Of a stretch of 64,000 nucleotides of DNA, positions 23,304 through 64,000 are shown piece by piece. Source of the DNA: Gammaproteobacteria bacterium (lineage in GTDB: Bacteria; Pseudomonadota; Gammaproteobacteria; Arenicellales; Poriferihabitantaceae); NCBI GenBank assembly GCA_030432755.1, contig JAUILZ010000003.1, positions 195,863-259,862 of the forward strand, read 5' to 3'. The notes beneath the pieces are model-generated. The model made no database searches. It was given only the letters and a program-made list of their open reading frames with translations, and was not told the DNA's origin. How positions within the stretch are numbered: the stretch's first letter is position 1; the number at the start of each line of letters is the position of its first letter. Position numbers and translations under genes: made by a program.

Positions 23304-23390
<87 letters not shown>

Positions 23391-31477: not shown

Positions 31478-34400
31478 CTACAGACTGGACAACTTGTCGC
31501 CGTCCAGTTCGCGCGGCTCCTGGTTGTCGATGATCAGGTCCGGCTCAATGTCGATGATCGATTCCTCGTCTACCGGCATGCACTCGTCGTTCTGCTCGTA
31601 GAGGCTCACGCCGTTGCAGTGATCCTCCTCCGGCCGGATCTCGAACCAGGAGGGATCGATGCGGCCCACCACGCTGCCGCCGGCGATATCGCGGTAGGCC
31701 GGGTCGTGGATGATCCCGGGAATGAACAGGTCGGAGGACAGGTCCGGCAGGCCGCGGAAGAACAGGCCGTCGAAGAACTGCGAGATATCGAGGCCACGGG
31801 CGAATCCGCTCGGGAATACCCAGGCATTCGCCGCCCGGTAGTTACCGGTGATGTAGGCCACCAGTTCGGCCTGGTAGATCGACACGTCGCCGCCGATGTT
31901 GAAGCGTACCGGGCCGCCGGGGTTGCCGATCCGGCCGCGGCTCGACCACAGGCTCGCATCCGCCGGAGTGATGATGACGCCCGAGCCGGCGATGTTATCC
32001 CCCGCCAGCAGGCTCACCCGGTCCCTGGCGGACTGGATGGTGGTACCGATGTTGATGGTACGCGCGCCGCCCACCGCGCCGGGACCGAAGCCGCCGTCCA
32101 CCGCCGCGAGGTTGACCTCGCCCTGGCCGTAGATACCGGAGCCGCCGAGGCTGAGCGCGCCATAGGCGTTGAGCGAGATATCCCCGGCCGCGCTGATCCG
32201 TCCCGTGGTGCTGAGATTGCCGAGCGCGGCGATGTCGATCCAGCCGGTGGTGTTGATGTTCCCCAGCGCGAGCGGCGTGGCGTCGACGAAGCGCAGGTTG
32301 TTGACCAGCCCGTTCGGGCTGCCGATGGTGACGTTGCCGTAATACGTGCTGAACTCGCTGTCGAGGTAGATCGAGTTACCGTTGGATACGCGGATGAGCG
32401 AGTTGCCGGCCACGTTCACCGTGCCGGTATCGGTGATATCGCCGTAGGACAGGATCTCCAGCGACTGCACGTTGCTCGCATTGGCGAAATTGGTGCCGCT
32501 ATCTTCCTGGATGATGGCATGCCGGCCGTTGACGGTGAGATCGCCGAAGTTGGTGGAATCCGAGCTGACATCGCCGAGGATGATGTCGTTGCGCGCCTGG
32601 AAGTCACCCAGCATCGGCACGGAAATGCGCGCGCCGGGGATATCCGAGATGCCGCCGGTGATCGCTTCCACGCGCAGGCTGCGGCGGGAAATGGTGTTGC
32701 CGAGGGCGATATCGTTTATATCCACCAGGTGGATGTTGAGACCATCGGAATGCACCGGACCGCGGAAATCGTTGCTGCGGGTATCCAGGGTAATCACGTT
32801 GCTCGCCAGCAGCGTGGTGGTGCCATCTACGGTAGCGGTGCCGACATCGGTGATCGCGCCGGTGATCGCCTCGACGTCGAGATCGCCGCGCGCCGTGGTC
32901 GTGCCTAGAACGATGTCGTTGGCATCCACCAGGGTGATGTTGACGCCGTCGGAATTCACCACCCCGCGGAAGTCATTGCTGCGCGTGTCGAGCACGATAT
33001 CGTGCTCGGCGATGAGGTTGGTCACCAGGTTGACGACCGCATTGCCGACGTCGGTGATGTCGCCCGTGATGGATTTCACGTTGAGCCCGCCGGACGCGCG
33101 GGTGATACCGAGCTCGATGTCGTTCTCGTCCACCAGGGTGATGTCTTCGCCGTTGGCGAAGACCGTGCCCTGGAAGTCGTTGAGCGGGTTGTCGAGCACG
33201 ATGTCGCCGGTGTCGGTGCGGCGGCCGCCGGCGCCCAGGCTGCGCGCGCGCAGCCGGGTTTCGCCAGCCACCAGAGCACCATCGTTGTGGATATAACCGG
33301 GCGCCTCGCCGATCAGCGGTACCGCCACGAGATCCTCCGAGGTGGCCGGGCGGCCGATGTTGTTCGCGGACCAGCCGTCGCTGCCGGTATCCGCGATAAA
33401 GCCGTCGATGGCCCTGACGCTGAGATCGCCGCTGGCCACCGTGGTCTCCAGCAGGATGTCGTTGGCATCCACCAGGGTGATGTTCACCCCGTTGCTGTTG
33501 ACCTCGGCGCGGAAGTCGTTGGTTTCGGTATCGAGCGAGATATCCGTGGCCGCCAGCAGGTAGGTGGGCAGGTTCACCGTGGCGGTGCCGGAATCGGTGA
33601 TCCCGCCGCTGATGGCGTGTACCCGCAGGCCGCCCTGGGCATTGGTGGTGCCGAGATCGATATCGTTGGTGTCGACGAGTGCGATATCCTCGCCGTCGCT
33701 GTTGACCGACCCCATGAAATCGTTGAGGACATTATCAAGCGTGATGTCGCCCTTGTCGGTGTACGCGCCGGCGTCGATGCCGTCCACGGTTTCCGCGAGC
33801 AGGTAGGTCGCGCCCGTCACCAGCGCGCCGGCACCGGTTTCGGTGTCGGTGATATGGCCGTCCTTGCTGGTCACGTCCAGGTCGCCGTCGGCCACCGAGG
33901 TACCAAGGGCGATGTCGTTGGCGTCCACCAGTACGATGTCCTCGCCGTCGCTGTTGACCTCGCCCTGGAAGTCGTTGAGGACGTTGTCGAGGACGATATC
34001 ACCCCTGTCGGTCACCGATGCGGTATCGATGCCGTCCACCGTTTCCGCCAGCAGGTTGGTGGTGCCCGCAACGAGAGCGCCGCTACCGGTCTCGGTGTCG
34101 CTGATATGGCCATCCACCGAGGTGACGTTGAGATCGCCGTCCGCCACGGTGGTGCCGAGGGCGATGTCGTTGGCGTCCGCCAGGGTGATAGTGACACCGT
34201 CGGAATTCACCTCGCCCATGAAGTCGTTGGCGCGGGTATCCAGGATGATGTCGCCGGTGGCCAGCAGGTTGGTGGTGCCGCCGATGGAGGCCGCGCCGAC
34301 ATCCGTGATGGTGCCGTCGAGCGCGGTGACGTTGAAGTCACCGGTGGTGACGGAGTCGCCCAGCAGGATGCTGTTGGCATCCACCAGGGTGGTGTTCACC

Positions 34401-37400
34401 GCGTCCGAGTCCACCCGGCCCTGGTAGTCGTTGACGACATTGTCGAGAACGATGTCGGCCACCGCGCCGAGGTCCGAGTCGCCGGTTACCAGCAGCGATG
34501 CGGCCGGGTCATCGGTGATGCTGCCATCGCTCCTGAGGCGCAGTGTCGCCGCGGTGTTCGCGCCGGCGAGCAGCATGTCATCGTCCTCGCTGATATCCAC
34601 CGTGTCGCCGGTGAAGGTCAGGCTGCCGAAGCGGACGTCGTCCGCGGGCTGGTCGCCGAGGACGATATCATTGCCATTGGAGTCGAACTCCGCGTTGCCC
34701 GTCACCAGGAGGCTGGAGCCTTCCACGTCGGTGATGTTCGCCGCATTCACGTCAAGGTCGAAACCTGCCGTAACGTTGCGCAGGGCGATGTCCCGTGGCG
34801 TGGCAGCGGTGAAGCCAAAGGAATCGAGGTCGACGAAACCATTTGGCGCGATGGCGTCGACGTAGCCCAGAGACCAGAGGTCGGTGTCGATGTTGGCGCC
34901 AGCCTCGAGGATAACGTTGTTGGCGAGGATATTGAGATCCGCGCCGTTGCTGTCGACGATGGAGCCATCCGCGATGAGGGTAACGTTGCCGTTCACCGCG
35001 TCCGGAGGGATTCCGCCGGCCAGTTCCAGGTTCAGGTCGCCATCGATTTCCTCCACCCGGGCGGAGCCACCGGTGGTATCGGCATCGGTGTTCAGCAATG
35101 CGTTCAGGTTTCCGCCCTGCAGGTCGATACGGACAGGGGCGTCGTCCGCGCCGATATTGCCGTCGGCGGTGGCGAGGTCGATCTCCCGCGAACGAACGAC
35201 ATGACTGCCGGAGGGCTGCAGGATGTTGCCTACCACGTCGATATCGGTGAGGCCGCTGCTGTTGAGCAGGTTGCCCGCCAGGGTAACGTCGGTGTCCTGT
35301 GATGCGTCGACGGCGATCAGGCCCTCGGCATTACCAAGTTCCACCACGTCGATGGAGTCGTACTCGTCGGTCTGGACATCGGTATCGCTGTTGATCCGGA
35401 TCTGCGTCTCGGGCGCGGTATCGATGTCGATCAGGCCGAGCTGCAGGTCGAATGCGGAGTCGTTGTTGATCTCGACGTGGGAATAGCCGCCCAGCGCGGA
35501 CAGCGTACCGTCCCCGGTGAGCCAGCCGGACGCGGGCTCCGGACCCTCGATGACGATGGTGCCGGGCCGGTGGACGATGTCCGGGATGATGATCGTATTG
35601 CCCACGGTGACCGGCACGAAACCCGCCCAGTCACCATCGCCGTAGGCCAGGTTGACCGTATTGCCGTCCGGCAGGATGCGGTCGATGTCGACACCGATGT
35701 TGCTGATATCCACGGTAACGTTACCGTCGGCATCGATATCGATGAAGTAGTTCTCGATGCCGGACTGGACATTGCCGGTGATGTTGAGCGCGGCATTGTC
35801 CGCCACCTGGATGTCCACCGAGGACAGGCCGGCGACATCGCCGTTGATTTCGTAGTTGGCGGCGCCGCCGTCGGTGGCGTTGCCGAGGCCGAGACGTAGA
35901 TCGCCCGAGGCGATGACGTCGCCGATATCCACCCCGCCGCTGCTACCCGCGAGCGGTGCCAGGTCGAGGAAGATATTGCCATGGGCAAAGGCGTCCACCA
36001 CCGCGTCGATCACGCCGTCCGGGAAGAGGTTGAGCGTCAGATAGTCGCCCGACGTACCGATGGAACCGTCGTAGGCACGGCCGTCGAAGTCGTGGGTCTC
36101 GATGATCGCCGCGGAGCCGCTGCTGAGGATATCGCCGCCGACACTGGAGACGAATACCGAGCCGGCGTTGCCTTCCACGTTCTCCTCGCTGTCCACGAGG
36201 TCGGTGAAGGTGATATTGCCCGTGCCCTCGCCGAAGATCTGGATGCGGCGATCGCCTTCTGCCTGGGTGATGGTCAGCATATTGAGCGCGCCGGCTCCCG
36301 CACCGTTCGTACCACCGAATACCGTCGCCGGATCCGTCGAGTAGTCGTTCAGGCGATTGAAGAAGTTGACCGCGCCATTGCGATTCGCCGAGTAGTCACC
36401 GATGGCAGGGCCTGCCTGGTTCTCTGCGTTGATCAGGAATTCCGGCAATGCGCTGCCCGGGTCCGCGAGGATGATGCGGCCGATTTCGAGATTGGCGTCG
36501 GTAAGATTGACGATCTTCACATAGGGGAAGATGTTGCTGTATTGCAGCGTCCCCTGGTTGAGCGCGTAACCATTCGGGTTGGAGACCCCGTTCCTTTCTT
36601 CGTGGCTAGCGGTAATACCAACGCCGTCTTCGAAGTCGTAGCTGTAAGCCGGCGCCGGTGAATAGATGCGTACCCTGCCCACCTGGTCCTTGACCAGGTC
36701 GTCTACCACGATATTGCCGGCGGCATCGTAGCTGGCGGTAATCTCTCCCGAGATGGTCTCGATACGACCGTCGGCATGGATCAGCAGCTCCTGGCCCACG
36801 CTGTCCAGCATCACTATGGTGCCGTCGATGCGGTTGTAGGCGTTGGCGCTCGAGGACCAGCCAAAGGTGTTCGGGTCGATCAATCCACTATTGGTGTCAC
36901 TGACCGCGCGCACCTGGGTCGCGCTGCTAATCACCGATTCGAAATTGACGTCGTAGGTATGAATCTCGGCGGTGTCCTCGAAATCCACCAGTGTATCGAG
37001 ATCCGCAACCGTCTTCGCGTTCTGCGTCCCCGTGTCGAACGCCACGCTGCCACCCTTGTGGGTCCTGGACTCGATGCGGCCATCCACGCCGTCGGCAATG
37101 TCATCCAGGCGCGCGATCAGGTCCACCTGGTTGCGCCCGGTGAGACGCGAGCCAGCCTCGACGTTTACACGGGTATCCGAATCGACATCAGAGATGGCGT
37201 CCACGGTAATACCCGAGCCGAAGCCGTTGACATGGGCGTAGGCATCCGAGTAGGCGCGCAACTGCGTGGTGCGGCTGTCGAGCAATACGTCGTCGGCGCT
37301 GACGGCAGCATTCGTGCCGACGTTGACGTCGTTCGTGCTGTTGATATCCACGCGTGAATAAGGCACCACGGATGGGATCGCGAAGGCCCCGGCGGTGCTG

Positions 37401-49400: not shown

Positions 49401-52400
49401 CGCAGTTGTCCGCTCACGTCGACCTGGCTGTTTTCTACCCGGGTCAATGTGTTGTTGCCGATGTCGTTAATCGACAGTCCGGCGCCGACGCCGCCCTCGT
49501 TGTTATACTGGTGACGTCCGACGCGCCGCATCATGCTGCTGTCGCTGGTCGACTGCGCCGCGCCGCCGACGGCGAAGATATCCGAGGTATCCGAGGCGCT
49601 GAGGTCGAGATCCCCGGTAACGTCGACGTCGGCATCGGTGATGCGCGCCTCGGTAAAGAAGAATTCCTGGGGAATGCCGAACGGATCGATGACTATATCC
49701 GCCGGGTCTATGACGATGGGATCGATGACCACGGGGTCGATAACCAGCGGATCGGTGCTCAGGTCGATGCCGCCCACCGGATCGAAGGCAATCAGGTTCT
49801 CGCCGATGGTATTGAGCGCCACGGACCCGACGAGATCGGTATCCGGGGAATTGCTGCCGCCCGCGGCGATGGCGAAGATCTCGCTGGTACGGGTCGCCTC
49901 CAGGTTCACGTTACCGCCCGCGGTGACGCTGGCGCCGGTGATATTCGCCGAGGTGGCGCCGTTGACGATGTTGCGCGTGAACGCGCCCACCAGGCCGGTA
50001 TTGTTGGCGTTCTGCGACGACGTGAAACCGCCGCCCGAGTTGCGCGAACGGGTGACCGACCCCGCGAGGGCGAAGATGCCGCTGTCATTGCTGGCGCCCA
50101 GGTTGACGTTGCCCGGCGTATTCACCGAGGCGGCGCCATTGATGCCGGCGATGGTGTCGTCGGTGACCGAGTTCCAGGACACGTCGGCGGACACGTTGAG
50201 CCCGTTACCCTGGCCGTAGCCACGGTAGCCACTCGGGCTACCGTAGATGCTCGTACCGCCACCCGTGTTGCCGCTCGAGTTGCCCTGCTGCAGGATGCTC
50301 GCGGTATAACTGCGGATATCGCCACTCGATGTCGCTTCGAGCGTCACGTTGTCGGCGTGCACCGATCCCGCGCTCGCGGTTTCATCCTCGAGCACGCCGA
50401 TCACCGCTACCGCACGGCGGTCCATGTCGTTGACCGAGATCGCGCCGGCAATACGGTCGCTGGTGGGTACGGTACTGCCGCCGCCGTAACCGCCGGACGG
50501 ACGTGTGGCGTCCTCGAGGTTGGCCACCGCGATGTTGATATTGCCGCGCAGCAGGCCGTTGATCGGGTCCACCGGATCGCGCACCGTACTGTTGTTCGCG
50601 CTCAGTGAAACGTCGCGGGCCGTCACCGTGGCGCCGTCACGTACCTGGGCCACGCTGTCGCTGTCGACGTCGGTGAGGGAAACCGCTCCCTTGACGCCGT
50701 ACTTTTCCGCCGGTCCGGAGGAGATCGTGAGCGACAGATTGCTGAACTCCGCGTTGCTGTCGACGTTTAGTTCGTCGACGTTGACGAGCGCACCGTTGCC
50801 TACCTTCGCCGCCGCGTTGTTGACAAGGTTGAAGTCGTGGTAGCTGCTGCCCACGCCGGTGGTGTCGCGGCTTTCGCGATCGACGCCGAGGAAGGACTTC
50901 TTCGTCGTGCCCTCGGGCAGCGCGCCAACGTTACCGGTGAGGTTGACCGTTTCCACCAGCGCATTGGCCGTCAGCATCAGGTTCTGGTCCGGCGCGGCGC
51001 TCGCGCTGCCCTGGTTGATGCGCACGTTGTCGCCGACGATGGCATTTGCCACGTTGCCGATGTTGAGGATGTTGGCCGAGCCGGCGATGCCGAGGCGTTC
51101 GTCGGTGCCGTTCTTCAGCCCGTGCGCCTTGGCGGAGGTCGTTACCAGTCCCGCGAGTATGTCACCCTCGTTGACCAGGTCCTCGCGGAACTCCGCGAAT
51201 TCCTCCTTGATCTCGCCGGTCTCGGAGAGCGTGTCAAGCGACAGCTCCAGATTGGTGAGGTCGGTGAGGTCCGGCATCTCCGGCCAGTCGATGCCGGCAT
51301 TGGGGAAGCGCGCGTCCGCCGTCACCGCGATCTGCCCGCCGGCGTCCACCGATGCGCCTTCGCCGATGCCGGCATTGGCGCTGTTGTCGTGGTTGCTGAC
51401 GATCAACGCCACGTTGCGAGTGGCGTCCTGGTCGCGCGAAGTGGTGCTGCCACCGGTATGACGCACAATGCGCGTGTGCGCAAAATGCTGGACGTCCTCG
51501 TCGCGGGTGTTCGCCTCCACGGTCACCGCGCCGTTGCTGGTGACGATGGCGTCCGCAAGGATGTCCGCGTTGGCGACCAGCGAATGATCCGAAAAACCCT
51601 GGGCGCCGGGCACCTGGTGGCGCAGCAGGCGCGCGGTGGCCTCGTCGGTGAGGTCGGGCCCGCCTACCGCTGTGGACACGGCGTCGAGTCCCGTTGGGTC
51701 AACCCGAAGATCGATACCGATGGCCTCTCCGACGAAGAACCGGTTGATCTCCTCGAGCACGTCCTGGGAGGCCTGGCGGCCGCCCACCACCGTGGGATCG
51801 GTCTTGTTGAAGATGTCGTTGGCCTGGCCCCTGAAGCCCGACAGAACGCCGGTTGTGGCGGAACTGCTGGTGGCGTTGGCGGTGACCGTCACGTTGTCCG
51901 CATTGACACTGCCGCCGAGAGCCGCGGTTGTCGTGTTGTCGGCGAATGACAACCCGACGGCCTGGCGCAGCGTACCGTCGACGAAATGATTGGCGGTGGA
52001 GGACAGCAATGTGCTGCGATCCGAAGTCGCTCCCACCCCGAGATCTGCGACGGCGGTCGTGGTGACGCTGCCGTCGATGCTGGCGCGCGACGTTGACTGG
52101 GTCTCCGCCACCGCCAGGGTCGCGTCATAGGTGCGGTCGAGTCCCGTCGGGCGGGTGCGCGCGGTGCGCAGCGCGCCTGTCTTCACCACCGTGGTGTTCC
52201 CGGTATTGCTGCGTACCTCGATCGCCCCGCCAGACTCGAGCACCGCGTCGTTGTTGATGTCCACCGTCGCCACGGTGCGGGTCTCGCCGTAGGCCACGGC
52301 CAGGGCCTCGCCGAATTCCTGCAGGCGCTCGCCCGGGTTGTCCGGATCCTCGATGCTGCCGAAGTACACCGAGGCCTTCGCCTCGGCATCGATGCTGGTA

Positions 52401-55210
52401 TTGCCCTCGGACTGGATGCGTCCGCCGCTGATCGCCACCTCGGCGGTGGAGCGCGCCACCGCGGCGCCGCCCATGATGGTATCGTCGCCAAAGGTGCCGA
52501 GGCGTGGTTCGAGCAGGGAAGTGACGTCAGTGAATTCCTGGCCATCCGCATACAGCGTCTGGTCGTTGTAATCCACCGCGGATTCCGCGCTCGCGCGGAT
52601 CGTCACGTTGTTGCCGCGGATGCTGGTGTCGTCCAGCTGGATACGCGCGCCCACCTCGCTGATCCCGTTGTCCGTCACCGTACGGTTGTCCTCGGTGCTG
52701 AAGCGGGTATCGCTGATGCTGGCGTCGAGGTTGACGTCACCCGAGAGGAACGTGCTGTCCGCATGGGCAAGAAGCTGGCCACCGCTGTTCACGGTGATGT
52801 TCGGCGCGCGCACCACCAGGTTGCCGGAATCTCCGAGCGAGGCGCCCACGACATGGTCCCCGCCGACGCCGACGTTGCGGGTTGAGATCAGCACGTTACT
52901 GTCCACCGTGATGCTGTTGTCAGCGGTGAGCGTGAGGTCGCCGTTGGCAAGCTGATTACCGGAGATGGTGAGATCCACGGGATCGATAAGCACCGAACCC
53001 CGGGTACCCGCGATCGAGGAAACCTCGAACGTGCTTTCGCCCAGGTTCACCAGTTCGGTGGCGCTGATCTCCACCTGGCCGCCGTTACCGCCGGCAATGC
53101 CACCCGCGGCATTGACCGTACCGCGGAACTCGGTGGACTCGTTGGCCCAGACCACGATGGACCCGGCATTCCCGTTGTCGGTGGCATTGCTGCTGAGCGC
53201 GCTGCCCTGGATCGACACCGAGCGCCCGGTCACGCCCTCCGCCGGACCGCTGGTGGAATTGGTGCCGATCAGGATGTTGCCGCCGCCGGTGAGGCCGGAA
53301 CTGTTCACCCGCGCGGCCTCGCTGAGGGCGATCTCCTGGCCGGTGACCTGGACGCCGCCGCCGGTACCCGATTCACTGGAGGTATCCACGTCGGCGCGGA
53401 TGTCCGCGCGCTGGGTGCCGGCGTCGATGCTGACGTTGCCGCCAGAGGTGATGACGTTGGCCGCGATATTGACGCTCTCCGTCGGCGCCGATGGCTCTTC
53501 GCCCGCACCCTCGCCTTCCGGTGGAACCTCCGGTTCCTCGCCGCCGCCTTCCTCGCCTTCCCCGCCCGGCGGCTCGGTCGCCGCGGCCATGAGCATGGTG
53601 GTCAGCATGCCTCCATTGGTGGTGATGGCGCTGTTCACGTTGATCGATCGCCCTGCTTTCAGGTTGACGTCGAGCTTGCCCGAGGTGGAAGTGATCGGTC
53701 GGTTGACGTCGACGTTGCCATGGGCATCCAGCGTCAGGCTGGCATCTGCGCCCCCGGTCTTGTCGATGCGCGCATTGACGGTGATATTGCCGTCCTCGTC
53801 TCCCTCGGCGACGGTCTGGATGGTGACGTTGCCGCCGGCGTTCAGCGTCTCCTCGATATCGTTCGCGCGCGCGCGATTGATATTGATGTTGGTGGGATCG
53901 AGCAGCCATTCGCCGCCATTCCCCGCGGGCGCGCTGACGTCCACCGAGGTGCTGAAGTCGAGGTTGATCTTGCCCGAGGTCTCGACGAATCCACCGTCGC
54001 CAGCAACCGGGCCGCCGCGGGCGCTGATGTTACCGTCCACCGTGGTGGTGTGATCCGACCAGACGATGACCCTGCCGCCGTCGCCACTGCTGGTGGCGTC
54101 CGCGCGCAGATCCGCGCCCGCACCGATGCTGGTGTTGCGTGCATTGGCGAGTTCGCCCTTGCCCTGGTAGTCGCCACCCACCAGGATCTCGCCGCCACCG
54201 GCGGGGCCGGAGGCATCGATCGTCCCGTCAACGTGGACGGTTGAGCCGGTGACCGCCACTGTACCGCCGGTAACGCCGGCCGCATTGCCGGATACATCCA
54301 GCGTGCCGGTATTGACCACGCCGCCGGGACCACTGCCCACCAGGCGGATGTCGCCGCCGCTGGCGTCGATGCGTGTGGCGCTGACCAGGCCGCTGTTGTT
54401 GACGAGGTTGTTGTAGACATTGCGCGTCGCGGAAGCGCTCAGCGACACCGTGCCGCCACGGGCGAGGATCTCGCCGCTGTTACTGACCGCCGCGTCGCCG
54501 CCCCGGTTTGCGTCGATGCCTTCCTCGATACGCACGCCGAGCAGGCGATCGCCGTCGAAGTCGAGAACCGCGGCCTTGCCCGCCGCCAGGTTGACCTGGC
54601 CGAGCTCGGCGAGGATCGTGCCCTCGTTGCTGACCTCGCCACCCACCAGCGAGACGCTGCCGCCGGGAGTTACCTCGATGCGTCCGAGATTGACGACGGC
54701 GCCGCCGCCATTGCCGCCGCCCAGGCGGTAGTTGCCCGTCATGAAATCATCGGGGTCGATGCGCAGGCTGGTGGCCACCAGGCTGCCCACGTTCACCTGG
54801 GCGGTCTTGCCGAAAACGATGCCGTTGGGATTGGCGAGAAAAACGCGGCCATTGGCGTCGATCATGCCGAGGATCTGGCTCGGGTTCTGGTCGAGGATGC
54901 GGTTCAGCGCGACCGCGTCCGCTCCCGGCTGGACGAAGCGCACCAGTTCGCTTGGCGCGACGTTGAACGACTGCCAGTCGGCGACCATGGACCGGCTGCG
55001 CTGGTCGATGATGGTATGGCCGGGTGTCTGCTGGTTGATGGAGCCATTACCGCGAACGATGACACCGCCTTCCGGTCCCGCCATGGCAGGCGAGTACACC
55101 AGCACCGCCATGCAGCACGTGGTAAGCGCGGATCGCAACCTGGCGAGTGGCAGGTATCGTTTTTTCACCGCCTTTACCCCGTCAAGGATCCCGTCAAAAC
55201 GCTTCATCAT
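31478..55210 (-). CDS. Giant two-partner-secretion exoprotein (TpsA; filamentous haemagglutinin/LktA-like beta-helical adhesin), 7,910 aa
   Basis: Single uninterrupted ORF. Signal peptide ...VYSPAMA/GPEGG. TPS secretion domain motifs NRILDQNPSQILG and FLANPNGIVFG. Thousands of residues of G/A/V/D/N/S/T-rich repeats. Lies directly downstream of a ShlB/FhaC-type gene. Confidence 0.9.
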   Translation of the reverse strand: MMKRFDGILDGVKAVKKRYLPLARLRSALTTCCMAVLVYSPAMAGPEGGVIVRGNGSINQQTPGHTIIDQRSRSMVADWQSFNVAPSELVRFVQPGADAVALNRILDQNPSQILGMIDANGRVFLANPNGIVFGKTAQVNVGSLVATSLRIDPDDFMTGNYRLGGGNGGGAVVNLGRIEVTPGGSVSLVGGEVSNEGTILAELGQVNLAAGKAAVLDFDGDRLLGVRIEEGIDANRGGDAAVSNSGEILARGGTVSLSASATRNVYNNLVNNSGLVSATRIDASGGDIRLVGSGPGGVVNTGTLDVSGNAAGVTGGTVAVTGSTVHVDGTIDASGPAGGGEILVGGDYQGKGELANARNTSIGAGADLRADATSSGDGGRVIVWSDHTTTVDGNISARGGPVAGDGGFVETSGKINLDFSTSVDVSAPAGNGGEWLLDPTNININRARANDIEETLNAGGNVTIQTVAEGDEDGNITVNARIDKTGGADASLTLDAHGNVDVNRPITSTSGKLDVNLKAGRSINVNSAITTNGGMLTTMLMAAATEPPGGEGEEGGGEEPEVPPEGEGAGEEPSAPTESVNIAANVITSGGNVSIDAGTQRADIRADVDTSSESGTGGGVQVTGQEIALSEAARVNSSGLTGGGNILIGTNSTSGPAEGVTGRSVSIQGSALSSNATDNGNAGSIVVWANESTEFRGTVNAAGGIAGGNGGQVEISATELVNLGESTFEVSSIAGTRGSVLIDPVDLTISGNQLANGDLTLTADNSITVDSNVLISTRNVGVGGDHVVGASLGDSGNLVVRAPNITVNSGGQLLAHADSTFLSGDVNLDASISDTRFSTEDNRTVTDNGISEVGARIQLDDTSIRGNNVTIRASAESAVDYNDQTLYADGQEFTDVTSLLEPRLGTFGDDTIMGGAAVARSTAEVAISGGRIQSEGNTSIDAEAKASVYFGSIEDPDNPGERLQEFGEALAVAYGETRTVATVDINNDAVLESGGAIEVRSNTGNTTVVKTGALRTARTRPTGLDRTYDATLAVAETQSTSRASIDGSVTTTAVADLGVGATSDRSTLLSSTANHFVDGTLRQAVGLSFADNTTTAALGGSVNADNVTVTANATSSSATTGVLSGFRGQANDIFNKTDPTVVGGRQASQDVLEEINRFFVGEAIGIDLRVDPTGLDAVSTAVGGPDLTDEATARLLRHQVPGAQGFSDHSLVANADILADAIVTSNGAVTVEANTRDEDVQHFAHTRIVRHTGGSTTSRDQDATRNVALIVSNHDNSANAGIGEGASVDAGGQIAVTADARFPNAGIDWPEMPDLTDLTNLELSLDTLSETGEIKEEFAEFREDLVNEGDILAGLVTTSAKAHGLKNGTDERLGIAGSANILNIGNVANAIVGDNVRINQGSASAAPDQNLMLTANALVETVNLTGNVGALPEGTTKKSFLGVDRESRDTTGVGSSYHDFNLVNNAAAKVGNGALVNVDELNVDSNAEFSNLSLTISSGPAEKYGVKGAVSLTDVDSDSVAQVRDGATVTARDVSLSANNSTVRDPVDPINGLLRGNINIAVANLEDATRPSGGYGGGSTVPTSDRIAGAISVNDMDRRAVAVIGVLEDETASAGSVHADNVTLEATSSGDIRSYTASILQQGNSSGNTGGGTSIYGSPSGYRGYGQGNGLNVSADVSWNSVTDDTIAGINGAASVNTPGNVNLGASNDSGIFALAGSVTRSRNSGGGFTSSQNANNTGLVGAFTRNIVNGATSANITGASVTAGGNVNLEATRTSEIFAIAAGGSNSPDTDLVGSVALNTIGENLIAFDPVGGIDLSTDPLVIDPVVIDPIVIDPADIVIDPFGIPQEFFFTEARITDADVDVTGDLDLSASDTSDIFAVGGAAQSTSDSSMMRRVGRHQYNNEGGVGAGLSINDIGNNTLTRVENSQVDVSGQLRLDTGSLASIDAVAASIMRGSQDLVGGALTWNEIGNNVTATIEGGNGTARTVNAAGVTLDAHDTSRIRSVAGAIASNSGGSAPANPNVAIGVSVAYNQIDNTIAAGISDATVITTGALDIDATNAADIQTLVAGYTNSSGDGATGSVAINRITTATDAYITAGSVIDAGGNVDLLADADNTIQMLAATIASNGDPQGGMGGTVGGGGLGSLGARNGQGQYFGVGISGDVAINMIADDTSARIDAESVVNSGGDVSLAADNHSDIDTIAGAIEKTNDPSGTGIAGSFGDARIDGNASAVVDSAEVNAAGDLALAATRSGEIFNIAGSVATGGALDLAGAVSSNEIGNSTIARIRESDVVAANVDLDARDEANIFSIGGAAVNQGGSQPNPYASGREARGGVGAGIAINAIGNETLAEIDNSDIATGSVDADAVVTGKIETIAGSIANGTDNMLSGAVAWNEINNVTRAEIRQDAIAANAVNAAGNVTLGASDTSIIGAIAGQVTKTESSAIGASLAYNQIGNQVGAGIRIADVNAAAFAADAESDAAIQALVVGLGLAESDGITASIAINEISSATDAYVTDGSRLLTTAGDALLLANSIGEIQMLAFTYSSAGGGSSSSGGGAYGGGMPTSPAGGQGTNFGIGVSGDVAINTIDDATTARIDEGSDVDSAAGVTLVATSDNDIDVIAGAVQNSRSSGANNPGGGSPTGIAGAYAEANIGGVTAARVAHATVTARDDLDLRAARSGDIFSIAASVSSGGGSNIAGSVSHNRFDSETSAIIERSDVEVANVDLDAVDGSGVFAIGGAAVNQSGSNSSVAGGRGVRGGLGAGIAINVLDNQVTSAIDDSQVETGAISLDAASNGEIQAIAGAIGRGSDNMLTGAVAWNENGNTVESRIRRGAGNSTTVNTTGPVSLNATDTASIQSLAGQISKTDSSAIGASVAYNQVDGGATALLDNAELLVDGAVSASAGASHTIETLVGGLVLAGGDNVSASVAINDIGGHAHALVGNGSSVDAESLSLHADADNDIDVLSFSIASGSPDNGGGPSGGSFAGNPLGASGGQGTNFGLNISGDVVLNEVHKTTVAEIGGGSNVNTPGNTTLLAENDSDILAIGGAFQAGGNTGQSAAGAYARSEINDVTRASVDGATLQAGGGLDLEARHGGQIISAAVGGAKGGQNNLAGSVSHNVVGGETAALIDGATTIAGGDTTLTATDEFDIIGIGGALSFGGANAGLGAGIALNDVDSTTRARVGESDVLAGGALTLGAWSLGDIHAVAAAVARNPNSIAGAVSVNTIGNTTEAELVDNTNTVIASSVSLDARNDAGIHSLAGSVGLGSNLGVGGAGSYNRVANTTRARVTGTDIDTTGVVDINAANIAQIETLAGGVAVAGNAVSVSVAVNEMDSDTSALVTGGSQITNAGQVNVDATNNSTIDALAVSVAVSGISVGGGQSGGGQSSSQGNFGLGVSGDVVISDIEDDTLAAIDAGSELVEVGDARVEARNDSSITAIAGAVAIGTGSNDNSIAGAYVQNNIGGRTAAEVRDASVDAQSLDVIARSGTPAGLLTPSGDPSSPNRIVGIAAGGTLATGSGGANGLAGSVANSRITGATEAQVVDSDVRTESDINVEATTDAEIIGVGGAISVALGNGGGYGAGLSINEVESVTAARVTDSRVDAGGALSVEAENNSDIWAVAGAIGVGASSGGNGGAGSFSFNQVNNETSAEISGGRDVDTVRAADEIAVSATDDSAIHSLSGAIGVAGNVALGISAAYNEIGNVTRAGISNADVASTGGSVAVDADSDNFVETLVAGVAASNAIAASGSAAISQFAGETDAYISNSQVAADDNLLVRADADNDLDELAVGLAASAGSAGVGGAVAVNIFDNVTRARIDTDSVVEAHANGDSALINTGALGGTTLGGAPTALAAQGNVGAMESPGQLDLDDSQIDTSPTNVYELNKVLGARQAEAIRGVGVSAVSSDSINTIDAYAAGSTGAVAVGGAVTVNVLNSEVNAVIADSAVNQSAAAGGAEQAVRVNAGNHTVANTYGGALAGSTGGVGVGVTGSVNVNDKVTRAGIVRSAVDANGSVGVRADSSNEFGSLMIGVGVGSNVGVAASAGVLVSESTTEAYLTDTTVNTGGDVAVAARERTNVDLLSGGISGAGTAAVGVAANVVTTNNTVRARIDGDSTVNSSGALGVRADNVVQLFDIAAAGGGAGTVAAQGGIGVKVVENTTEAYIGDNVDINQDDSYASANQDVTVAATDTMQLFSVDAALGIGGVVGVGAGVDVNVVNNSTNAWIGDNASVSAGRDILVLADSAKDVTSVTVGVGGAGKVGVGGAVSVVVIGGAIDGEQETALQMVRNGKDENGDDIPEEEKENYDINNLDQDFLGNPVNGDGGQNLLVVNEGSPTSARDQFAGQAYASLTSTTAGNGVTSKFSASTPAPESGTHAWIGGDAVIDAGRDVNVSADNTTDTFVFSGGVGVGGIAGVGAGVGVVSVTDHTTAHSGVGSVINAGNDVTIRATDGHDPALAPSRVYAAAGGGGIVGIGAAVAVQNRSSTTEAYLASGARIDTANDVLIEADQEHYLDSQIVNIAVGGVAVGGSYSQADSRATVSAHTGIGSRIGAPPAGAGGVDNVSVVATSTQDVQANTIAVTGGLVGVTGSGTASYVESDVDALIGEESVIRAEEDIAVDAHADSTSVAVVSNEGDDPAIGLSIGGVAVNVNITDASSLTNVDAAVDGGADLAGRDLLVEATEIGEVTARTLSGGGGIGSVQGAGGYAYADSTINAEVLDDAIVTLTGDAEIVADSELDVYAEAIAAGGGGLSINGNGVEAVSVSRVNARLGQATLGAESLAVTANRANASGDANHAVTGNSISGGGGVVSVNGGGVLVDATAEITSEIADDAIVNVDDALAVTARGIQDAQADVSSAGGGGVSVNAALATVDADDTVNARIGQGAEVDAGSVAVDAIGINRANPGSSLDDVTVLSAGGGVLSGNGGGGEVNATATVNAVIDDSATVNATGPVEVTADGTQLVNLFSNTSGAGGISINAGTGTTTSTLTVLGRVGEQASIDAGSLLVDADGDNRVNVNMESSGGGAISGNGAGGNAIATGNVTAEVDDDAEVIADAAVTVSSDLFQRANTVVNSAGGGAISVNAGAGGANSNATSLARIGEDVAVQAGSLLVDADSDNAASMDMSSAGGGGISINAGGVTAHATSDTDAIIADNSDDDVLIDVDGAVEVLAEAHQVANTQVTSPGGGLVSVNQSAANVNATMNVDASVGAGINLDAGSLTVNALAYNDANPGQDINNPTARAEGGGIVGVNTSSANVVASVSANAAIGDDAEITVTDRAEVSTEATQVARIAVVNAGGGAVSVNVGGASATSDLSTSATLGDDVVLSARNFAVEARGDNTYRADSRTTGGGAISVNSGGVSATGTTTVVAETGADNTIATAENMRVEAEADSEVDVESVSTGGGVIEVSTAAAVAEADVTARAVIGTNNTVTNGGTLRVLADGDSDVRARSDVDNGGFVAVGVSNTRGTSIVDVDAKIDDDSTVVTGSDITLLAAGRHVVDVDSEANNGGFVAVADSGGEDSRIQATGTLLLNAETGDDVTLQAGNILLKARANVDENGNAIAGKGVFADTNVSANGFVGASGSRVRALTSPTVVAGFGDRNSITATGNVDVIAQRHAVADSSATGQAGGAGAGGSVSTESVIGGQTIEYPVVTVNYPVPQFTPEGDRLYAVGDGSSYYVDVDDVGGESLYRYEQIFIGPGYYVPYTDPEGRIYPLGEDSPLGAPAVEYLVAAVDFDGTVYDVMLVEDGTVLGAYVLEGPEAGRTFEAGIEVDGANINIIVDDAPTELDSDFGEITYIANWNTPGNISLVRIEGGPPPSNLVAVTDMVEFARTDFDNPTVLGEAGGQVNASAGDNTRIVSGGNINFDAYGSARGEATGTGSGYGAVAGYGARATTDITTDVDAGIGEGTTLVAQSQDGGSANVTIRATTAVQGDSDADSTAGAFAIPSVVPYSRVDINSTNDVNVGTNAAVSADDVLLDSRTTQLRAYSDAYAHVNGFGSGITVDAISDVDSDTRVNVEAGSRLTGRNQVDLIARLDDIADGVDGRIESRTHKGGSVAFDTGTQNAKTVADLDTLVDFEDTAEIHTYDVNFESVISSATQVRAVSDTNSGLIDPNTFGWSSSANAYNRIDGTIVMLDSVGQELLIHADGRIETISGEITASYDAAGNIVVDDLVKDQVGRVRIYSPAPAYSYDFEDGVGITASHEERNGVSNPNGYALNQGTLQYSNIFPYVKIVNLTDANLEIGRIILADPGSALPEFLINAENQAGPAIGDYSANRNGAVNFFNRLNDYSTDPATVFGGTNGAGAGALNMLTITQAEGDRRIQIFGEGTGNITFTDLVDSEENVEGNAGSVFVSSVGGDILSSGSAAIIETHDFDGRAYDGSIGTSGDYLTLNLFPDGVIDAVVDAFAHGNIFLDLAPLAGSSGGVDIGDVIASGDLRLGLGNATDGGAANYEINGDVAGLSSVDIQVADNAALNITGNVQSGIENYFIDIDADGNVTVDISNIGVDIDRILPDGNTVNLAYGDGDWAGFVPVTVGNTIIIPDIVHRPGTIVIEGPEPASGWLTGDGTLSALGGYSHVEINNDSAFDLQLGLIDIDTAPETQIRINSDTDVQTDEYDSIDVVELGNAEGLIAVDASQDTDVTLAGNLLNSSGLTDIDVVGNILQPSGSHVVRSREIDLATADGNIGADDAPVRIDLQGGNLNALLNTDADTTGGSARVEEIDGDLNLELAGGIPPDAVNGNVTLIADGSIVDSNGADLNILANNVILEAGANIDTDLWSLGYVDAIAPNGFVDLDSFGFTAATPRDIALRNVTAGFDLDVNAANITDVEGSSLLVTGNAEFDSNGNDIVLGDQPADDVRFGSLTFTGDTVDISEDDDMLLAGANTAATLRLRSDGSITDDPAASLLVTGDSDLGAVADIVLDNVVNDYQGRVDSDAVNTTLVDANSILLGDSVTTGDFNVTALDGTITDVGAASIGGTTNLLATGDIILDTRANDFMGEVNSDGVTITLADANDIALGTTVADGDLNVTSVDGHISDTETGSGALVAGTTNLLAETVDGIDTASVTDRGDIVLDNVLNDFQGEVNSDGEDIVLVDANDIALGTSVADGDLDVTSKDGHITDTETGAGALVTGATYLLAETVDGIDAGAYTDKGDITLDNVLNDFMGSVNSDGEDIALVDTNDIDLGTTNAQGGLRVHAISGGITDSGTATVNLPTYLLAATDISLDTETNDFRAEVNSNGVNITLVDANDILLETTVASGDLSVRAIDGFIADTGSDGWSANNIGRPATSEDLVAVPLIGEAPGYIHNDGALVAGETRLRARSLGAGGRRTDTGDIVLDNPLNDFQGTVFANGEDITLVDENDIELGITRASGGLNVKSITGDITDVGNAVVNLVTNLIAEHDIVLDTRSNDFRGVVNSDGVNITLVDANDIVLGTTTARGDLDVEAITGAITDVGTATVDGTTTLLASNVITLDTRSNDFRGPVHSDGLNIHLVDINDIALGNTISRRSLRVEAITGGISDIPGARISVPMLGDFQARNDIILGDVSSDSTNFGDLTVNGRHAIIQEDSGTNFANASNVQSLEILSYGDITDTGTVNVAGNSLIRVSNGNSIYLDSEFSTYYGNVTIGSPNGLVNNLRFVDATPLALGNINTTGWIDIAALGNLSTTGRISAAGDISLNAYGALSLGGSGIYGQGEVNLAAVDGGFGPGAVGGARTINIGTTIQSARDRVSLLAGDNIAGSGVIITPADASLWSSRGRIGNPGGPVRFNIGGDVSIYQAELVAYITGNYRAANAWVFPSGFARGLDISQFFDGLFFRGLPDLSSDLFIPGIIHDPAYRDIAGGSVVGRIDPSWFEIRPEEDHCNGVSLYEQNDECMPVDEESIIDIEPDLIIDNQEPRELDGDKLSSL
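32150..34700 (-). repeat. About 10 coding repeats of 68 aa (DI.LD...NDF.G.V.S.G..I.LVD.NDI.LG.T.A.GDL.V....G.I.D.G...V.G.T.LLA), some with 16- or 45-aa insertions
   Basis: The nucleotide motif gatgtcgttggc(a/g)tccaccag... recurs near 32705, 32912, 33117, 33455, 33662, 33911, 34163 and 34380. Confidence 0.75.
38650..41150 (-). repeat. About 16 coding repeats of about 52-57 aa marked by (S/A)GGGG.(S/V).N
   Basis: gccgccgcc-type Gly runs recur every 155-170 nt from about 41120 down to 38680. Units alternate between ...ARIG..A.VDAGS..VDA... and ...A.V.DDA.V.A...V.V.A.... Confidence 0.7.
43800..50300 (-). repeat. Five diverged coding super-repeats of about 1.2-1.45 kb inside the giant gene
   Basis: The landmark (G)QG.NFG(I/L)G(V/I)SGDV(A/V)(I/L)N recurs near 50195, 48740, 47485, 46208 and 45025. 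Each super-repeat is built from sub-units of about 45-50 aa of the form G.G.S.A.N.I.N.T.A.I. Confidence 0.75.
54310..55078 (-). other. TPS (haemagglutination activity) secretion domain of the giant protein
   Basis: aa ~45-300: VADWQSFNV, VRFVQP, NRIL..NPSQILG, VFLANPNGIVFG, VGSLVATSL. Confidence 0.8.
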
Positions 55211-55270
55211 TCACCTCTCATCAACTCTCTTGCTCTTGTGCTCTTGTCGTGACGCCATCCCTGGCGTGCG

Positions 55271-57067
55271 CTACCTCAATTTTGCATTCAGCGAAATGAA
55301 GAACTGGTTCTCGTCCTCTTCCGCATCGAATCCGGGCGCCGTATCGCCCACCGGCCTGGCCAACGATGCGGCCAGGGTAAATCGCGTACCCAGGTCATAG
55401 CGAAGCCCGATACCGGCGCCGCCGAGATCCACGCTGGCGATATCGCTCGGTAGCGGATCATTCAGGTCGCCGCCACCGTGGTCATAGAACACGGACGCCT
55501 GCAGCCCCCTGTATATGCCGACGGACAGTTCCGCCGAGACGAACCAGCCGCTGTCCATCAGGTAGGACGACAGCGGGTAGGCGCGCACGCTGTTGGGTCC
55601 GCCCAGGGGGAACTGCTCCAGCGACACCAGCAAGTCGTCGGAGTACTGGCCGTCCAGCCGCAATTGCAGTGACAGGCGTTGGTTCAGTCTCTGGAACAGG
55701 GTGGTGTTGAAGTTGAACTTGTCGAAATCACCGCCGGCTTTCTTCCCGTTGCCGCCAAGGCGACTCGATTCGCGCGCGTTTTCGCCGTCCATGGAACCCA
55801 GGAAATCACCGATGCCATGGGACCAGGATGCAGTCAGGGTGCTCACCCCGCCAGCCATTGCCTGGTTCTGGTAGCTGTACACGTTGCCGAGAAACAGCAC
55901 GGTGAGTTCATCCAGCGCGGTACTGACATCGTTCTGGTGCGTCTGCGAGGACTTGCTGCTCAGCCCTGCCAGCAGGGTGCGGTCCTGGTAGCGGCTGCGA
56001 AGATACGGATAACGCGCGTAGAGATCGATGCGATGGGATTCGCCATCCAGCCCGAGGTCAGCCAGGTCTCCGCCGACCTCGAAGGTATTGTTGCTGCCCG
56101 ACAGTCCGAGGTAGACGGGCTTGCCGTTTTTCTTGCGGATGTACGGGATGGAATAATCCACGCCGAAGTAGTCGCTGTTCGACGGGTCGAAGGACATGAG
56201 TCCTGACAGCGTCAGGCGGTCTCCCCTGCCCGTGGGATTCAGGGCGACGAGATCGATTCGCCCGCGCTTGTCGCCGACGTACTCCGAGCCGAAGTTGTCC
56301 AGTGTGAGATAGGCGTCAAACCGGTCCTCCTCTTCCACCTGGTAGAGCAGGTCCGCGGTTCCTTCGCGACTGCCGCGCTGCAACAGGCCGCGCGCCCGTA
56401 TGCCGGGAAGGTCGCGCGCATGAAGCAACGCGGATTCCAGCTCGGACTGCGTCACCGCGTCGTCGACCATGGGCGAGAACAGCCTGACCAGGGTCTCGCT
56501 TCGGTAGCGGTTGTTCCCCTCGACGAGGATCTCCCCCAGGGTGCCCTCGATGACACGGATCTCCGCGCTGCCATCGGCGATGGACTGTTCCGGCAGGAAG
56601 GCCTGGGTGAGAATGAATCCCTGCTCGCGGTAGGCATCCGTGATTCCATTGACGAGCTGATGCAGCTCGTCGATGGACCAGTCTTTCCGGCTCGCCACCG
56701 CCTCGTCGGCCATGGCCTGCAGGCCATCCGCGGTGATCCCGAGGTCCGGGTACTCCGGCGCATCCACCACCTGGATGCTGTCGATGACGACCCGCGGACC
56801 GGCGTCATCCCCGACGCCGGTACTTGGCGCGGACTCGGGCAGCACATTGTCATCCGGCAATTCCCTGGCCCCGGGACGTGGCACGGTGCGTTCCGGCTGC
56901 ACGCCACCGGGCGTGATCGGCGCCGGCAGGTTGACCCCCGGGTTTACCGGCGCGGGCCCCTGCTGGGCAGCCAGAGGATTACAGACGAACAGGACGGCAC
57001 ATCCCAGGGATAGCGCAATACGCCAATACCCGGCATGCCCTCGCGAAAACACGGGAAGGTAATGCAA
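55271..57067 (-). CDS. ShlB/FhaC/HecB-family TPS outer-membrane transporter (TpsB) with POTRA domains
   Basis: Signal peptide ...CNPLAA/QQ; POTRA pattern IRVIEGTLGEILVEGNNRYRSETL; barrel motifs LGGPNSVRAY. Stop lies 60 nt upstream of the TpsA ATG. The start codon (TTG 57067 or GTG 57052) is uncertain. Confidence 0.88.
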   Translation of the reverse strand: MHYLPVFSRGHAGYWRIALSLGCAVLFVCNPLAAQQGPAPVNPGVNLPAPITPGGVQPERTVPRPGARELPDDNVLPESAPSTGVGDDAGPRVVIDSIQVVDAPEYPDLGITADGLQAMADEAVASRKDWSIDELHQLVNGITDAYREQGFILTQAFLPEQSIADGSAEIRVIEGTLGEILVEGNNRYRSETLVRLFSPMVDDAVTQSELESALLHARDLPGIRARGLLQRGSREGTADLLYQVEEEDRFDAYLTLDNFGSEYVGDKRGRIDLVALNPTGRGDRLTLSGLMSFDPSNSDYFGVDYSIPYIRKKNGKPVYLGLSGSNNTFEVGGDLADLGLDGESHRIDLYARYPYLRSRYQDRTLLAGLSSKSSQTHQNDVSTALDELTVLFLGNVYSYQNQAMAGGVSTLTASWSHGIGDFLGSMDGENARESSRLGGNGKKAGGDFDKFNFNTTLFQRLNQRLSLQLRLDGQYSDDLLVSLEQFPLGGPNSVRAYPLSSYLMDSGWFVSAELSVGIYRGLQASVFYDHGGGDLNDPLPSDIASVDLGGAGIGLRYDLGTRFTLAASLARPVGDTAPGFDAEEDENQFFISLNAKLR

Positions 57068-60333: not shown

Positions 60334-64000
<3,667 letters not shown>

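Follow-up and report, generated by a model that had tools for sequence, protein, structure and literature searches.

Can a single bacterial gene of nearly eight thousand codons encode a genuine secreted protein, and if so, what would such a protein do? The question is posed by a 64,000-nucleotide stretch of a gammaproteobacterial genome (assembly GCA_030432755.1, contig JAUILZ010000003.1, positions 195,863 to 259,862; hereafter 'the window'), in which a giant stop-free open reading frame (ORF), tpsA, adjoins a gene for an outer-membrane transporter, tpsB. Judged by its sequence, the locus encodes a type Vb (two-partner) secretion pair of canonical kind whose cargo is exceptional, and we regard it as moderately probable, by analogy with the Haemophilus influenzae proteins HMW1 and HxuA, that this cargo is a surface-tethered adhesive or bridging fibre. 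The locus consists of three parts:

55271..57067 (minus strand): tpsB, gene of an Omp85-family transporter, 598 aa from a TTG start
55211..55270 (minus strand): tpsB-tpsA spacer of 60 nt, with the ribosome-binding site GAGAGGTGA directly before ATGATG
31478..55210 (minus strand): tpsA, the cargo gene, 7,910 codons (23,733 nt) from an ATG start, zero internal stops

Both genes are read from the same strand with tpsB upstream, and the first-pass annotation of the window, which had described one uninterrupted 7,910-codon cargo ORF lying 60 nt downstream of a ShlB/POTRA-type gene, is borne out on these points (the gap being exactly 60 nt). TpsB, for which an in-frame GTG five codons downstream of the TTG offers an alternative start, begins with a signal peptide and a Pro-rich linker, which are followed by POTRA domains and a ShlB-type barrel of 16 strands. 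It is matched by the Pfam models ShlB (PF03865, 8.7e-30, 104.7 bits), POTRA_2 (PF08479, 1.2e-13, 51.1 bits) and Omp85 (7.6e-06), its best matches among the sequences of the Protein Data Bank (PDB) are CdiB structures (6wim, 7.7e-14; 6wil, 7.8e-08), and by direct reading it carries an L6-type VRAY motif at aa 494 and an FxDxG-type motif (FYDHG) at aa 527. In the public record of TpsA (P0121; 7,909 aa, 100% identical) the protein begins at the second ATG, which is better spaced from the ribosome-binding site than the first. The encoded protein has a mass of 788 kDa, a pI of 4.05 and a net charge of about -700 that is distributed over all modules, and contains four cysteines (C32 and C33 in the signal peptide, C7865 and C7877 near the C-terminus). 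A terminator scan detected no terminator-like site on the minus strand of the tpsB-tpsA spacer, and promoter and terminator scans yielded nothing informative.

The domain content of TpsA was assessed by scanning ten 791-aa tiles of the protein with Pfam and NCBIfam (E<=0.01; four segments were re-scanned at E<=1), and the order of its modules was derived from these scans, from self-comparison and from a purpose-built hidden Markov model (HMM) for each repeat:

55079..55210 (minus strand), aa 1-44: Sec signal peptide (direct reading; predicted cleavage between AMA and GP)
53759..55129 (minus strand), aa 28-484: N-terminal beta-helix, EtpA/HMW1/HxuA-like, which includes the TPS domain (PDB sequence matches)
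50696..54328 (minus strand), aa 295-1505: irregular, weakly repetitive beta-rich region (weak internal matches only)
41678..50695 (minus strand), aa 1506-4511: array of about 50 LktA-type repeats of ~53 residues (NF012206 and own HMM)
38588..41644 (minus strand), aa 4523-5541: 'GGGxxSVN' repeat array, 18 copies of 52-53 residues (DNA period 156-159 nt)
37703..38332 (minus strand), aa 5627-5836: Tyr/Pro-enriched acidic insert (by composition; conserved in the one long homologue, from metagenome locus L001)
34841..37702 (minus strand), aa 5837-6790: central all-beta module (AlphaFold model; rare in databases)
32201..34840 (minus strand), aa 6791-7670: DUF5649 repeats, 10 copies with a period of 68 or 84 aa (PF18886 and own HMM)
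31481..32200 (minus strand), aa 7671-7910: C-terminal region with an acidic tail (44% identical to the L001 homologue)

At its N-terminus TpsA reads MMKRFDGILDGVKAVKKRYLPLARLRSALTTCCMAVLVYSPAMA followed by GP, with a basic n-region and the hydrophobic core ALTTCCMAVLVY (…AVLVYSPAMA, then GP), and thus has, as had been proposed, a Sec signal peptide ahead of a two-partner secretion (TPS) domain. The latter (aa 55-294) is recognized by PF05860 at 3.2e-34 (119.4 bits, cut-off 33.5) and by TIGR01901 at 5.4e-24 (83.9 bits, cut-off 29.1), and contains the expected motifs NPSQILG and NPNGIVFG. Among PDB sequences, the first 450 aa are closest to EtpA of enterotoxigenic Escherichia coli (8vba, 1.7e-75, 257.8 bits), followed by HMW1 (2odl, 4e-42, 147.2 bits) and HxuA (4i84, 1.6e-24, 88.9 bits), which (together with HMW2) are likewise exported by a TpsB. 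These proteins are shorter (900-1,800 aa vs 7,910 aa), and past about aa 500 TpsA has no sequence similarity to them. The co-occurrence of a TPS domain, an adjoining POTRA/ShlB-type TpsB and a Sec signal peptide (the last by reading) is what identifies the locus as a two-partner system.

As a reading frame of this length invites suspicion, we considered that tpsA could be an assembly artefact (mis-assembled repeats) or a non-functional, unexpressed relic, all the more so as the gene is highly repetitive, its sole long homologue is broken by a frameshift, and giant genes are often mis-annotated (PMC6336857). Several lines of evidence speak for a genuine gene. The chance of encountering 7,910 stop-free codons at the base composition of the window is about 1e-95; GC content at third codon positions (GC3) is 0.833, as compared to 0.85-0.89 in lysS, lon, lolC and glyA; and the synonymous-codon distance of tpsA to core genes is 0.064, with glyA and lon equally close. 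Taken together, the GC3 value and the core-like codon usage point to a real, long-resident coding frame. Furthermore, the identity of DNA repeat pairs within tpsA never exceeds 79%, which renders repeat collapse or mis-assembly unlikely as the source of the ORF; the order of modules is colinear with that of an independent assembly (L001), and both the ribosome-binding site and the partner gene are intact. An artefact or relic is in our estimation barely conceivable. The ORFs found opposite tpsA on the plus strand (33002-35302, 40331-43945 and others, up to 1,204 aa) were rejected as genes and are shadows of a GC-rich, repetitive and stop-poor gene.

What is this protein built from? The longest array follows the 53-residue consensus VGGAVAVNEIDNTTRARIGDGSTVNAAGDVDVDADSDSDIDAL and is matched by LktA_tand_53 (NF012206) with 162-330 bits in four tiles (cut-off 50; 44 matched stretches). 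The HMM constructed for the GGGxxSVN repeat yielded 19 matches in TpsA, all but one of them inside aa 4523-5541. When this repeat and the 53-aa repeat were compared in linear register, hhalign recovered only a 15-column match; their relation emerged once one consensus was doubled, and a circularly permuted consensus alignment scored z=4.5 against shuffles (as compared to about 0.2-0.3 for DUF5649 against either subtype). By these sequence comparisons the two arrays are one family, in two subtypes of permuted register, to which DUF5649 is unrelated, and together they account for some 68 repeats and about half of TpsA. The DUF5649 repeats were detected by PF18886 at 3e-26 and 9.9e-50 (91.9 and 167.2 bits, cut-off 25) in 9 stretches, by the dedicated HMM in 10 copies, and at the DNA level by a repeat spacing of 204/252 nt. 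The 'at least four unrelated repeat architectures' of the first-pass annotation are thereby reduced to two (the LktA-type repeat in its two subtypes, and DUF5649) plus irregular regions. On the other hand, its view that the shaft is more than an expanded filamentous haemagglutinin (FHA) was upheld, as neither Fil_haemagg (PF05594) nor Fil_haemagg_2 (PF13332) was found in the ten tiles or, at the relaxed threshold, in the four segments, and the shaft consists mostly of LktA_tand_53 repeats, DUF5649 repeats and the rare central module.

The regions between these arrays are less readily placed. The irregular region (aa 295-1505) has no Pfam or NCBIfam match, and shorter relatives share no more than its beginning (to about aa 500-800). 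The insert at aa 5627-5836 is set apart by its composition (Y 7.1% and P 7.6%, either residue amounting to about 1% in the repeats), and the central module that follows it has no match in Pfam, NCBIfam or the PDB sequences. Calling the locus an undescribed system would nevertheless overstate the case, given that the type Vb machinery is canonical and all recognisable modules belong to catalogued families. What is new is the combination of an EtpA/HMW1-type head, ~68 LktA-type repeats, a rare central module, a DUF5649 stalk and a C-terminal Cys box.

The predicted folds bear on the character and the length of the fibre. For a block of the 53-aa repeat (aa 3005-3404, 400 residues, with paralogous blocks used as alignment) the best AlphaFold model reached a pLDDT (predicted local distance difference test) of 89.9 and a pTM (predicted template modelling score) of 0.84, and shows per repeat two strands of ~20 residues and one of 4 residues, which differ from the short three-strand rungs of FHA-type helices. 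We treat this fold as tentative. A Foldseek search with the model returned nothing in the PDB at E<=0.001, the weak top matches being two-faced solenoids, curli CsgA and SufD, and the modelled repeat architecture may be a wide, flattened two-faced solenoid, with a rise of about 0.48 nm per 53 aa, or a hairpin ribbon. Outside the Tyr/Pro insert, aa 5601-6800 were modelled as all-beta, with pLDDT mostly of 70-95, while the insert itself (model residues 27-236) falls below 50 and is not predicted as ordered; Foldseek again retrieved nothing at E<=0.001, with weak solenoid matches to RsaA, HxuA, Ag43 and PL6 lyases. A stalk character is suggested by the fact that the AlphaFold models are all-beta and that their weak fold matches are all beta-solenoids. 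Counting one rung per 53-aa repeat, a fibre length of the order of 100 nm would be expected, as against a length closer to 190 nm if the whole protein had the geometry of FHA. The LktA protein of Fusobacterium has about 3,200 aa, which TpsA exceeds ~2.4 times. The earlier estimate of 'roughly twice' the classical length therefore stands for the sequence (more than twice FhaB or LktA) and does not carry over to the physical fibre, since strands of ~20 residues may mean a much smaller rise per residue than in the FHA helix.

How unusual is such a protein among its relatives? Its first ~500 aa have thousands of them, with 41-55% identity and lengths of 800-2,600 aa, in marine gammaproteobacterial metagenome-assembled genomes (MAGs), including Sedimenticola, Acidiferrobacterales, Steroidobacter and the MAGs of tubeworm and clam symbionts; many combine a TPS domain with DUF5649, and they cover 25-55% of the first 1,500 aa of TpsA. 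The word-index search by which the first 1,500 aa were compared returned nothing longer than 2,616 aa and neither P0121 nor the long relative described below, so that larger relatives may be missed. The environmental TPS+DUF5649 proteins, of 1,000-2,600 aa, share with TpsA the first ~500 aa, the DUF5649 repeats and the C-terminal box. Neither the 53-aa repeats, which fill ~4,000 aa of TpsA, nor the central module is present in them, and they attain at most one third of its size. In line with this shared head, stalk and tail, TpsA looks like a member of the environmental TpsA group and, judging from its sequence, seems to have gained between head and stalk ~4,000 aa of LktA-type repeats as well as a rare central module. 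The tpsB-tpsA gene order was found at the one locus of this group that was checked (P0035, a 2,616-aa TPS+DUF5649 protein), where tpsB, tpsA and a SapC gene (L082, 3709-14646) lie beside a type VI secretion cluster; SapC was not found in the window.

The central part of the protein is, on the contrary, rare. A phmmer search with aa 5601-6800 against 1.84 billion representative proteins gave 8 matches, namely TpsA itself (P0121, which sits in a singleton cluster), one long relative (P0122; 45-46% identity over 1,200 aa) and short or distant fragments. P0122 (3,285 aa) is encoded on the Joint Genome Institute (JGI) metagenome contig Ga0645780_07141 (locus L001), where an upstream 4,192-aa gene with a TPS domain overlaps its start. 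The two frames join at a run of five A (…ESDAGAKI joined to SASDVTIASS…; about 9481-9510, at GCAAAAATCC) into a homologue of ~7,467 aa with a one-base frameshift, which could be a sequencing error, decay or slippage. The joined homologue shares with TpsA the order of modules (at least 38 of the 53-aa repeats, 12 GGGxxSVN repeats, the central module and 5 DUF5649 repeats, vs 10 of the latter in TpsA), the Tyr/Pro insert and the CNGVxL..N.EC cysteine pair, and differs from it by an extra Cys-rich insertion in the tail and by its gene neighbours (a TonB-dependent receptor gene lies downstream). No further member emerged from two metagenome scans (with the N-terminal part of the L001 protein and with an alignment of the central module), no close relative of TpsB was found in GTDB genomes, and searches of the PDB sequences with the central module and with the C-terminal 1,110 aa were without a match. 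Two word-index searches, one with aa 5551-6850 and the other with the C-terminal 260 aa, also gave no match, to which we attach no weight, as the same search had missed P0121.

If TpsA is exported, does it remain on the cell? A short element close to its end bears on this:

31559..31666 (minus strand), aa 7849-7884: conserved C-terminal box, GRIDPSWFEIRPEEDH-C-NGVSLYEQNDE-C-MPVDEES

The mature protein, of 7,866 residues, has no cysteines besides the two of this box (C7865 and C7877, nt 31580-31618; C-x11-C), which lie 34 residues before the end, and the pair is kept with its surroundings in the L001 homologue (CNGVxL..N.EC.PV.EE). Some 20 shorter TPS/DUF5649 relatives have tails that can be aligned with the box ('IDPxxF…L(F/Y)…[C/L/M][LM]PxD[QE]xEE'), and in several of these a Cys occupies the column of C7877. 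HMW1 and HxuA are described as held in the pore of their TpsB by a disulfide loop near the C-terminus, which is retained in the periplasm (PMC5422565, PMC8151025). The Cys pair at the C-terminal end of these two proteins is thus an anchor (PMC5422565), and TpsA has its only mature pair at this end too. Moreover, among the domains of fibrillar adhesins, DUF5649 is counted as a 'stalk' (PMC8286594). The sole Cys pair in a conserved box, the HMW1/HxuA-like head and the DUF5649 stalk taken together favour a cell-attached fibre. The earlier statement that no function can be assigned is accordingly narrowed: toxin delivery finds no support, and among the functions then left open it is an adhesin or fibre with a C-terminal anchor that the sequence favours.

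On the assumption that TpsA follows established TPS biology (Sec export, recognition of the TPS domain by POTRA domains and N-terminus-first threading; PMC5422565, PMC8151025), the 7,910-aa precursor would cross the inner membrane via Sec, its EtpA/HMW1-type TPS domain would dock on the POTRA domains of the TpsB barrel, and the chain would be threaded outward N-terminus first and fold outside the cell. The resulting fibre would comprise the ~68 LktA-type repeats, the central module with its Tyr/Pro insert and the 10 DUF5649 stalk repeats, and would stay attached to the cell if C7865 and C7877 form a small periplasmic disulfide loop unable to pass the TpsB pore. Its most probable role would be to adhere to host matrix, to other cells or to particles, or to form bridges with them. 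The gene pair, its domains, the order of the modules, the intact frame, the rarity of the central module and the lack of toxin, immunity and FHA modules can be read from the sequence and the searches; secretion, tethering through the Cys loop and adhesive function are what we infer for TpsA.

A number of observations weigh against this interpretation. No known adhesive domain was found in TpsA, and the central module is without an annotated relative. The last 150 aa had no match among the PDB sequences at E<=10, and the tail could not be aligned to those of HMW1 and HxuA, from which the Cys-loop anchor is drawn by analogy. No glycosyltransferase of the HMW1C/EtpC type occurs among the scanned ORFs of the window (it could lie elsewhere in the genome); the EtpA and HMW1 operons carry such genes (etpC, hmw1C; PMC8151025). 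The other four of the five models of the repeat block attained pLDDT values of only 33-41. Lastly, the only long homologue is interrupted by the frameshift at the A5 run, a possible sign that such genes decay.

The same features can be read in favour of a released fibre, secreted or cleaved off, that would act as a polyanionic, cation-binding extracellular matrix scaffold in the manner of released FHA or CdrA. Such a role would suit the low pI and the strong negative charge of all modules, many TpsA proteins are released (PMC5422565), and several shorter relatives have the tail box and no cysteines, so that anchoring may not be what the box is for. The retention of the two cysteines in the long homologue (the only ones in the mature protein) speaks against release, as does the absence of a processing system: the TPS adhesins regulated in the manner of CdrA by LapG have a TAAG site and the LapG/LapD pair, of which the site is absent from TpsA and the genes from the window, where a maturation protease gene was likewise not found. 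We regard a released scaffold as unlikely, if by no means negligible.

The strong match to LktA_tand_53 raises the further alternative that TpsA is a cytolysin or leukotoxin of the LktA or ShlA type, in which the 53-aa repeats would belong to a membrane-damaging exotoxin directed at host or grazer cells. TpsA shares with the Fusobacterium LktA family the 53-residue repeat (NF012206, up to 330 bits per 791-aa tile) and the status of a TPS-type cargo, its N-terminus is weakly matched by the LktA-family model adhes_FxxPxG (NF012204, E=1.7e-4), and long amphipathic strands of ~20 residues could in principle insert into membranes. The NF012204 match stays, however, far below the cut-off (21.5 bits vs 60), the head resembles the adhesins EtpA and HMW1 most closely, rather than ShlA or HpmA, the acidity and hydrophilicity of the protein are extreme, and there is no lktC-like or other activation partner. 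TpsA moreover differs from LktA by a second repeat subtype, the central module, DUF5649 and the Cys box. The shared repeat does not imply toxicity, and we consider a cytolysin very unlikely.

The arrangement of modules brings in contact-dependent delivery as it is known from CdiA, in which secretion would stall, the central module would form a distal receptor-binding tip and the C-terminus would be exported into a neighbouring cell. With CdiA and the FhaB of Bordetella, TpsA has in common that a TPS head is followed by a repeat shaft of great length and that a TpsB serves as partner. In CdiA, a Tyr/Pro-rich domain is situated between two repeat regions (PMC9086364), and the order in TpsA (TPS domain, first shaft, non-repeat centre with the Tyr/Pro segment, second shaft, C-terminal region) follows this layout, with CdiB as the best PDB match of TpsB. 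Unlike FhaB and CdiA, on the other hand, TpsA has none of the 20-mer FHA repeats (the Pfam FHA-1/FHA-2 repeats are absent), and it contains no VENN, VDNN, ELYN, NEALV or TAAG (LPEN and other pretoxin variants were not searched). No toxin or pretoxin Pfam domain was detected in it, the last 310 aa giving only a weak DUF5649 match; downstream of tpsA lie genes for a cupin and a decarboxylase and no immunity gene, nor does the window hold one elsewhere, and the tail is a short acidic box common to relatives that are not toxins. A CdiA-like delivery function of TpsA seems to us highly improbable.

A more specific proposal retains the CdiA-like bipartite layout without the toxin. According to it, TpsA and the L001 relative would be the first members of a family of TpsA proteins that is rare and reaches ~7,500-7,900 aa in length. 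The first shaft, of ~53-residue repeats, would have a wide, long-stranded beta architecture for which no solved representative exists and would present the Tyr/Pro central module as distal binding tip, while DUF5649 and the Cys box would keep the C-terminal end at or in the TpsB pore; arrested secretion and tethering would then serve a sponge symbiont in adhesion to its host or to particles. We hold this proposal, taken as a whole, to be decidedly unlikely, and return to the more general reading of TpsA as a surface-tethered fibre.

No cargo described in the literature consulted is as large as TpsA. TpsA proteins have been reported to span 100-650 kDa (PMC5422565), CdiA proteins 180-630 kDa (PMC9086364) and the 'giant' type-II CdiAs of Acinetobacter 3,711-5,733 aa (PMC6336857), and TpsA at 788 kDa exceeds these published ranges. 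Giant beta-rich surface or transfer proteins of a symbiont are also known from the epibiont of 'Chlorochromatium aggregatum' (Cag_663 and Cag_665, the latter with LktA-like repeats; bioRxiv 10.64898/2026.03.19.712371). According to the same source, these are without known N-terminal signals and are associated with genes of type 1 secretion (sapC, tolC), SapC-family genes adjoining the giant ones, whereas TpsA combines a Sec signal and a TPS domain with a TpsB partner. As hemagglutinin-type proteins of more than 5,000 aa form a recognised class of bacterial huge proteins (PMC11573180), and in view of the LktA-like repeats of Cag_665, the size of TpsA alone would not surprise a specialist.

Which organism carries the locus, and for how long has it done so? 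The flanks consist of chromosomal housekeeping genes (rho, a DEAD-box helicase gene, tauD, lon, lolCD, lysS and prfB on one side; ogt, glyA and the gene of a Sel1/SH3/SPOR protein on the other). The product of glyA is 86-87% identical to those of the sponge-associated MAGs Gammaproteobacteria SB0677_bin_2 and Candidatus Poriferihabitaceae (the latter named in a sponge metagenome paper, PMC12859430), and based on this sequence likeness the host is probably a sponge-associated marine gammaproteobacterium. One edge of the ~34-kb lineage-specific region that holds the TPS locus is formed by a tRNA gene:

23304..23390 (plus strand): tRNA-Leu(CAG), detected by ARAGORN and Rfam

The distance from glyA to this tRNA gene is ~3.3 kb in two related MAGs (L005 and L006), in which glyA and tRNA-Leu(CAG) are followed by homologues of the window genes from 23085 back to 15255, vs 35.5 kb in the window, where the interval contains a low-GC island holding a two-component system and two MipA genes at a GC3 of 0.39-0.54, the cupin and decarboxylase genes and the TPS operon. 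Since the interval is short in the related MAGs the TPS operon is lineage-specific, and its core-like codon usage indicates that it is not a recent arrival. An origin of the TPS genes from a mobile element was rejected, their codon usage being core-like and unlike that of the neighbouring island.

This low-GC island (23400-29200) directly follows tRNA-Leu(CAG), with a GC content of 0.42-0.56 and a GC3 of 0.39-0.69 (vs ~0.85 in core genes). It encodes two MipA/OmpV-like outer-membrane proteins, an OmpR-type response regulator, a histidine kinase and an amidohydrolase with a twin-arginine (TAT) signal, and includes a transposase-like helix-turn-helix (HTH) fragment (24146-24658), while no integrase was seen. 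It looks like a separate acquisition, later than that of the TPS operon. Directly downstream of tpsA (29208-31339, minus strand) lie the genes of a cysteine-dioxygenase-like cupin (a weak match, E=4.5e-4) and of a pyridoxal-phosphate (PLP)-dependent decarboxylase, with no terminator detected between tpsA and the cupin gene; a TauD taurine dioxygenase is encoded at 10770-11648 (minus strand). Together these three genes suggest taurine/hypotaurine metabolism, which is common in sponge symbionts. Divergent from tpsB, a 102-aa ORF (57332-57640, plus strand) consists of the catalytic domain of Peptidase_S24 only (LexA/UmuD-type, 5.5e-12), and as it is conserved beside ogt in two further MAGs (L002 and L008) it marks the core-genome edge of the inserted region. 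In prfB, which encodes release factor 2 (22045-23140, minus strand), a programmed +1 frameshift site (CTT TGA C) is present at 23065-23071; the main ORF (22045-23022) starts at position 12 of the PCRF profile, with an ATG-started short frame upstream. The 867-aa protein encoded at 60334-62937 (minus strand) combines Sel1 repeats, bacterial SH3 domains and a C-terminal peptidoglycan-binding SPOR domain, and is partly conserved in the MAGs L004 and L008.

Taken together, these observations leave the current picture of how two-partner secretion works unchanged, and extend the known size range of type Vb cargoes; close to 8,000 residues would have to pass through, and be let go or retained by, a single TpsB barrel of 16 strands. 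They also draw attention to understudied pieces of TPS biology, namely the 53-residue LktA-type repeat fold, which has no significant match among solved structures, and the 1,200-residue central module, with its one long relative besides itself. Furthermore, the 'IDPxxF...LPxDQxEE' box, often with a Cys pair, is common to many environmental TpsA proteins and may represent a general element of anchoring or release. If the source of the window is a sponge symbiont, TpsA would be a candidate attachment factor.

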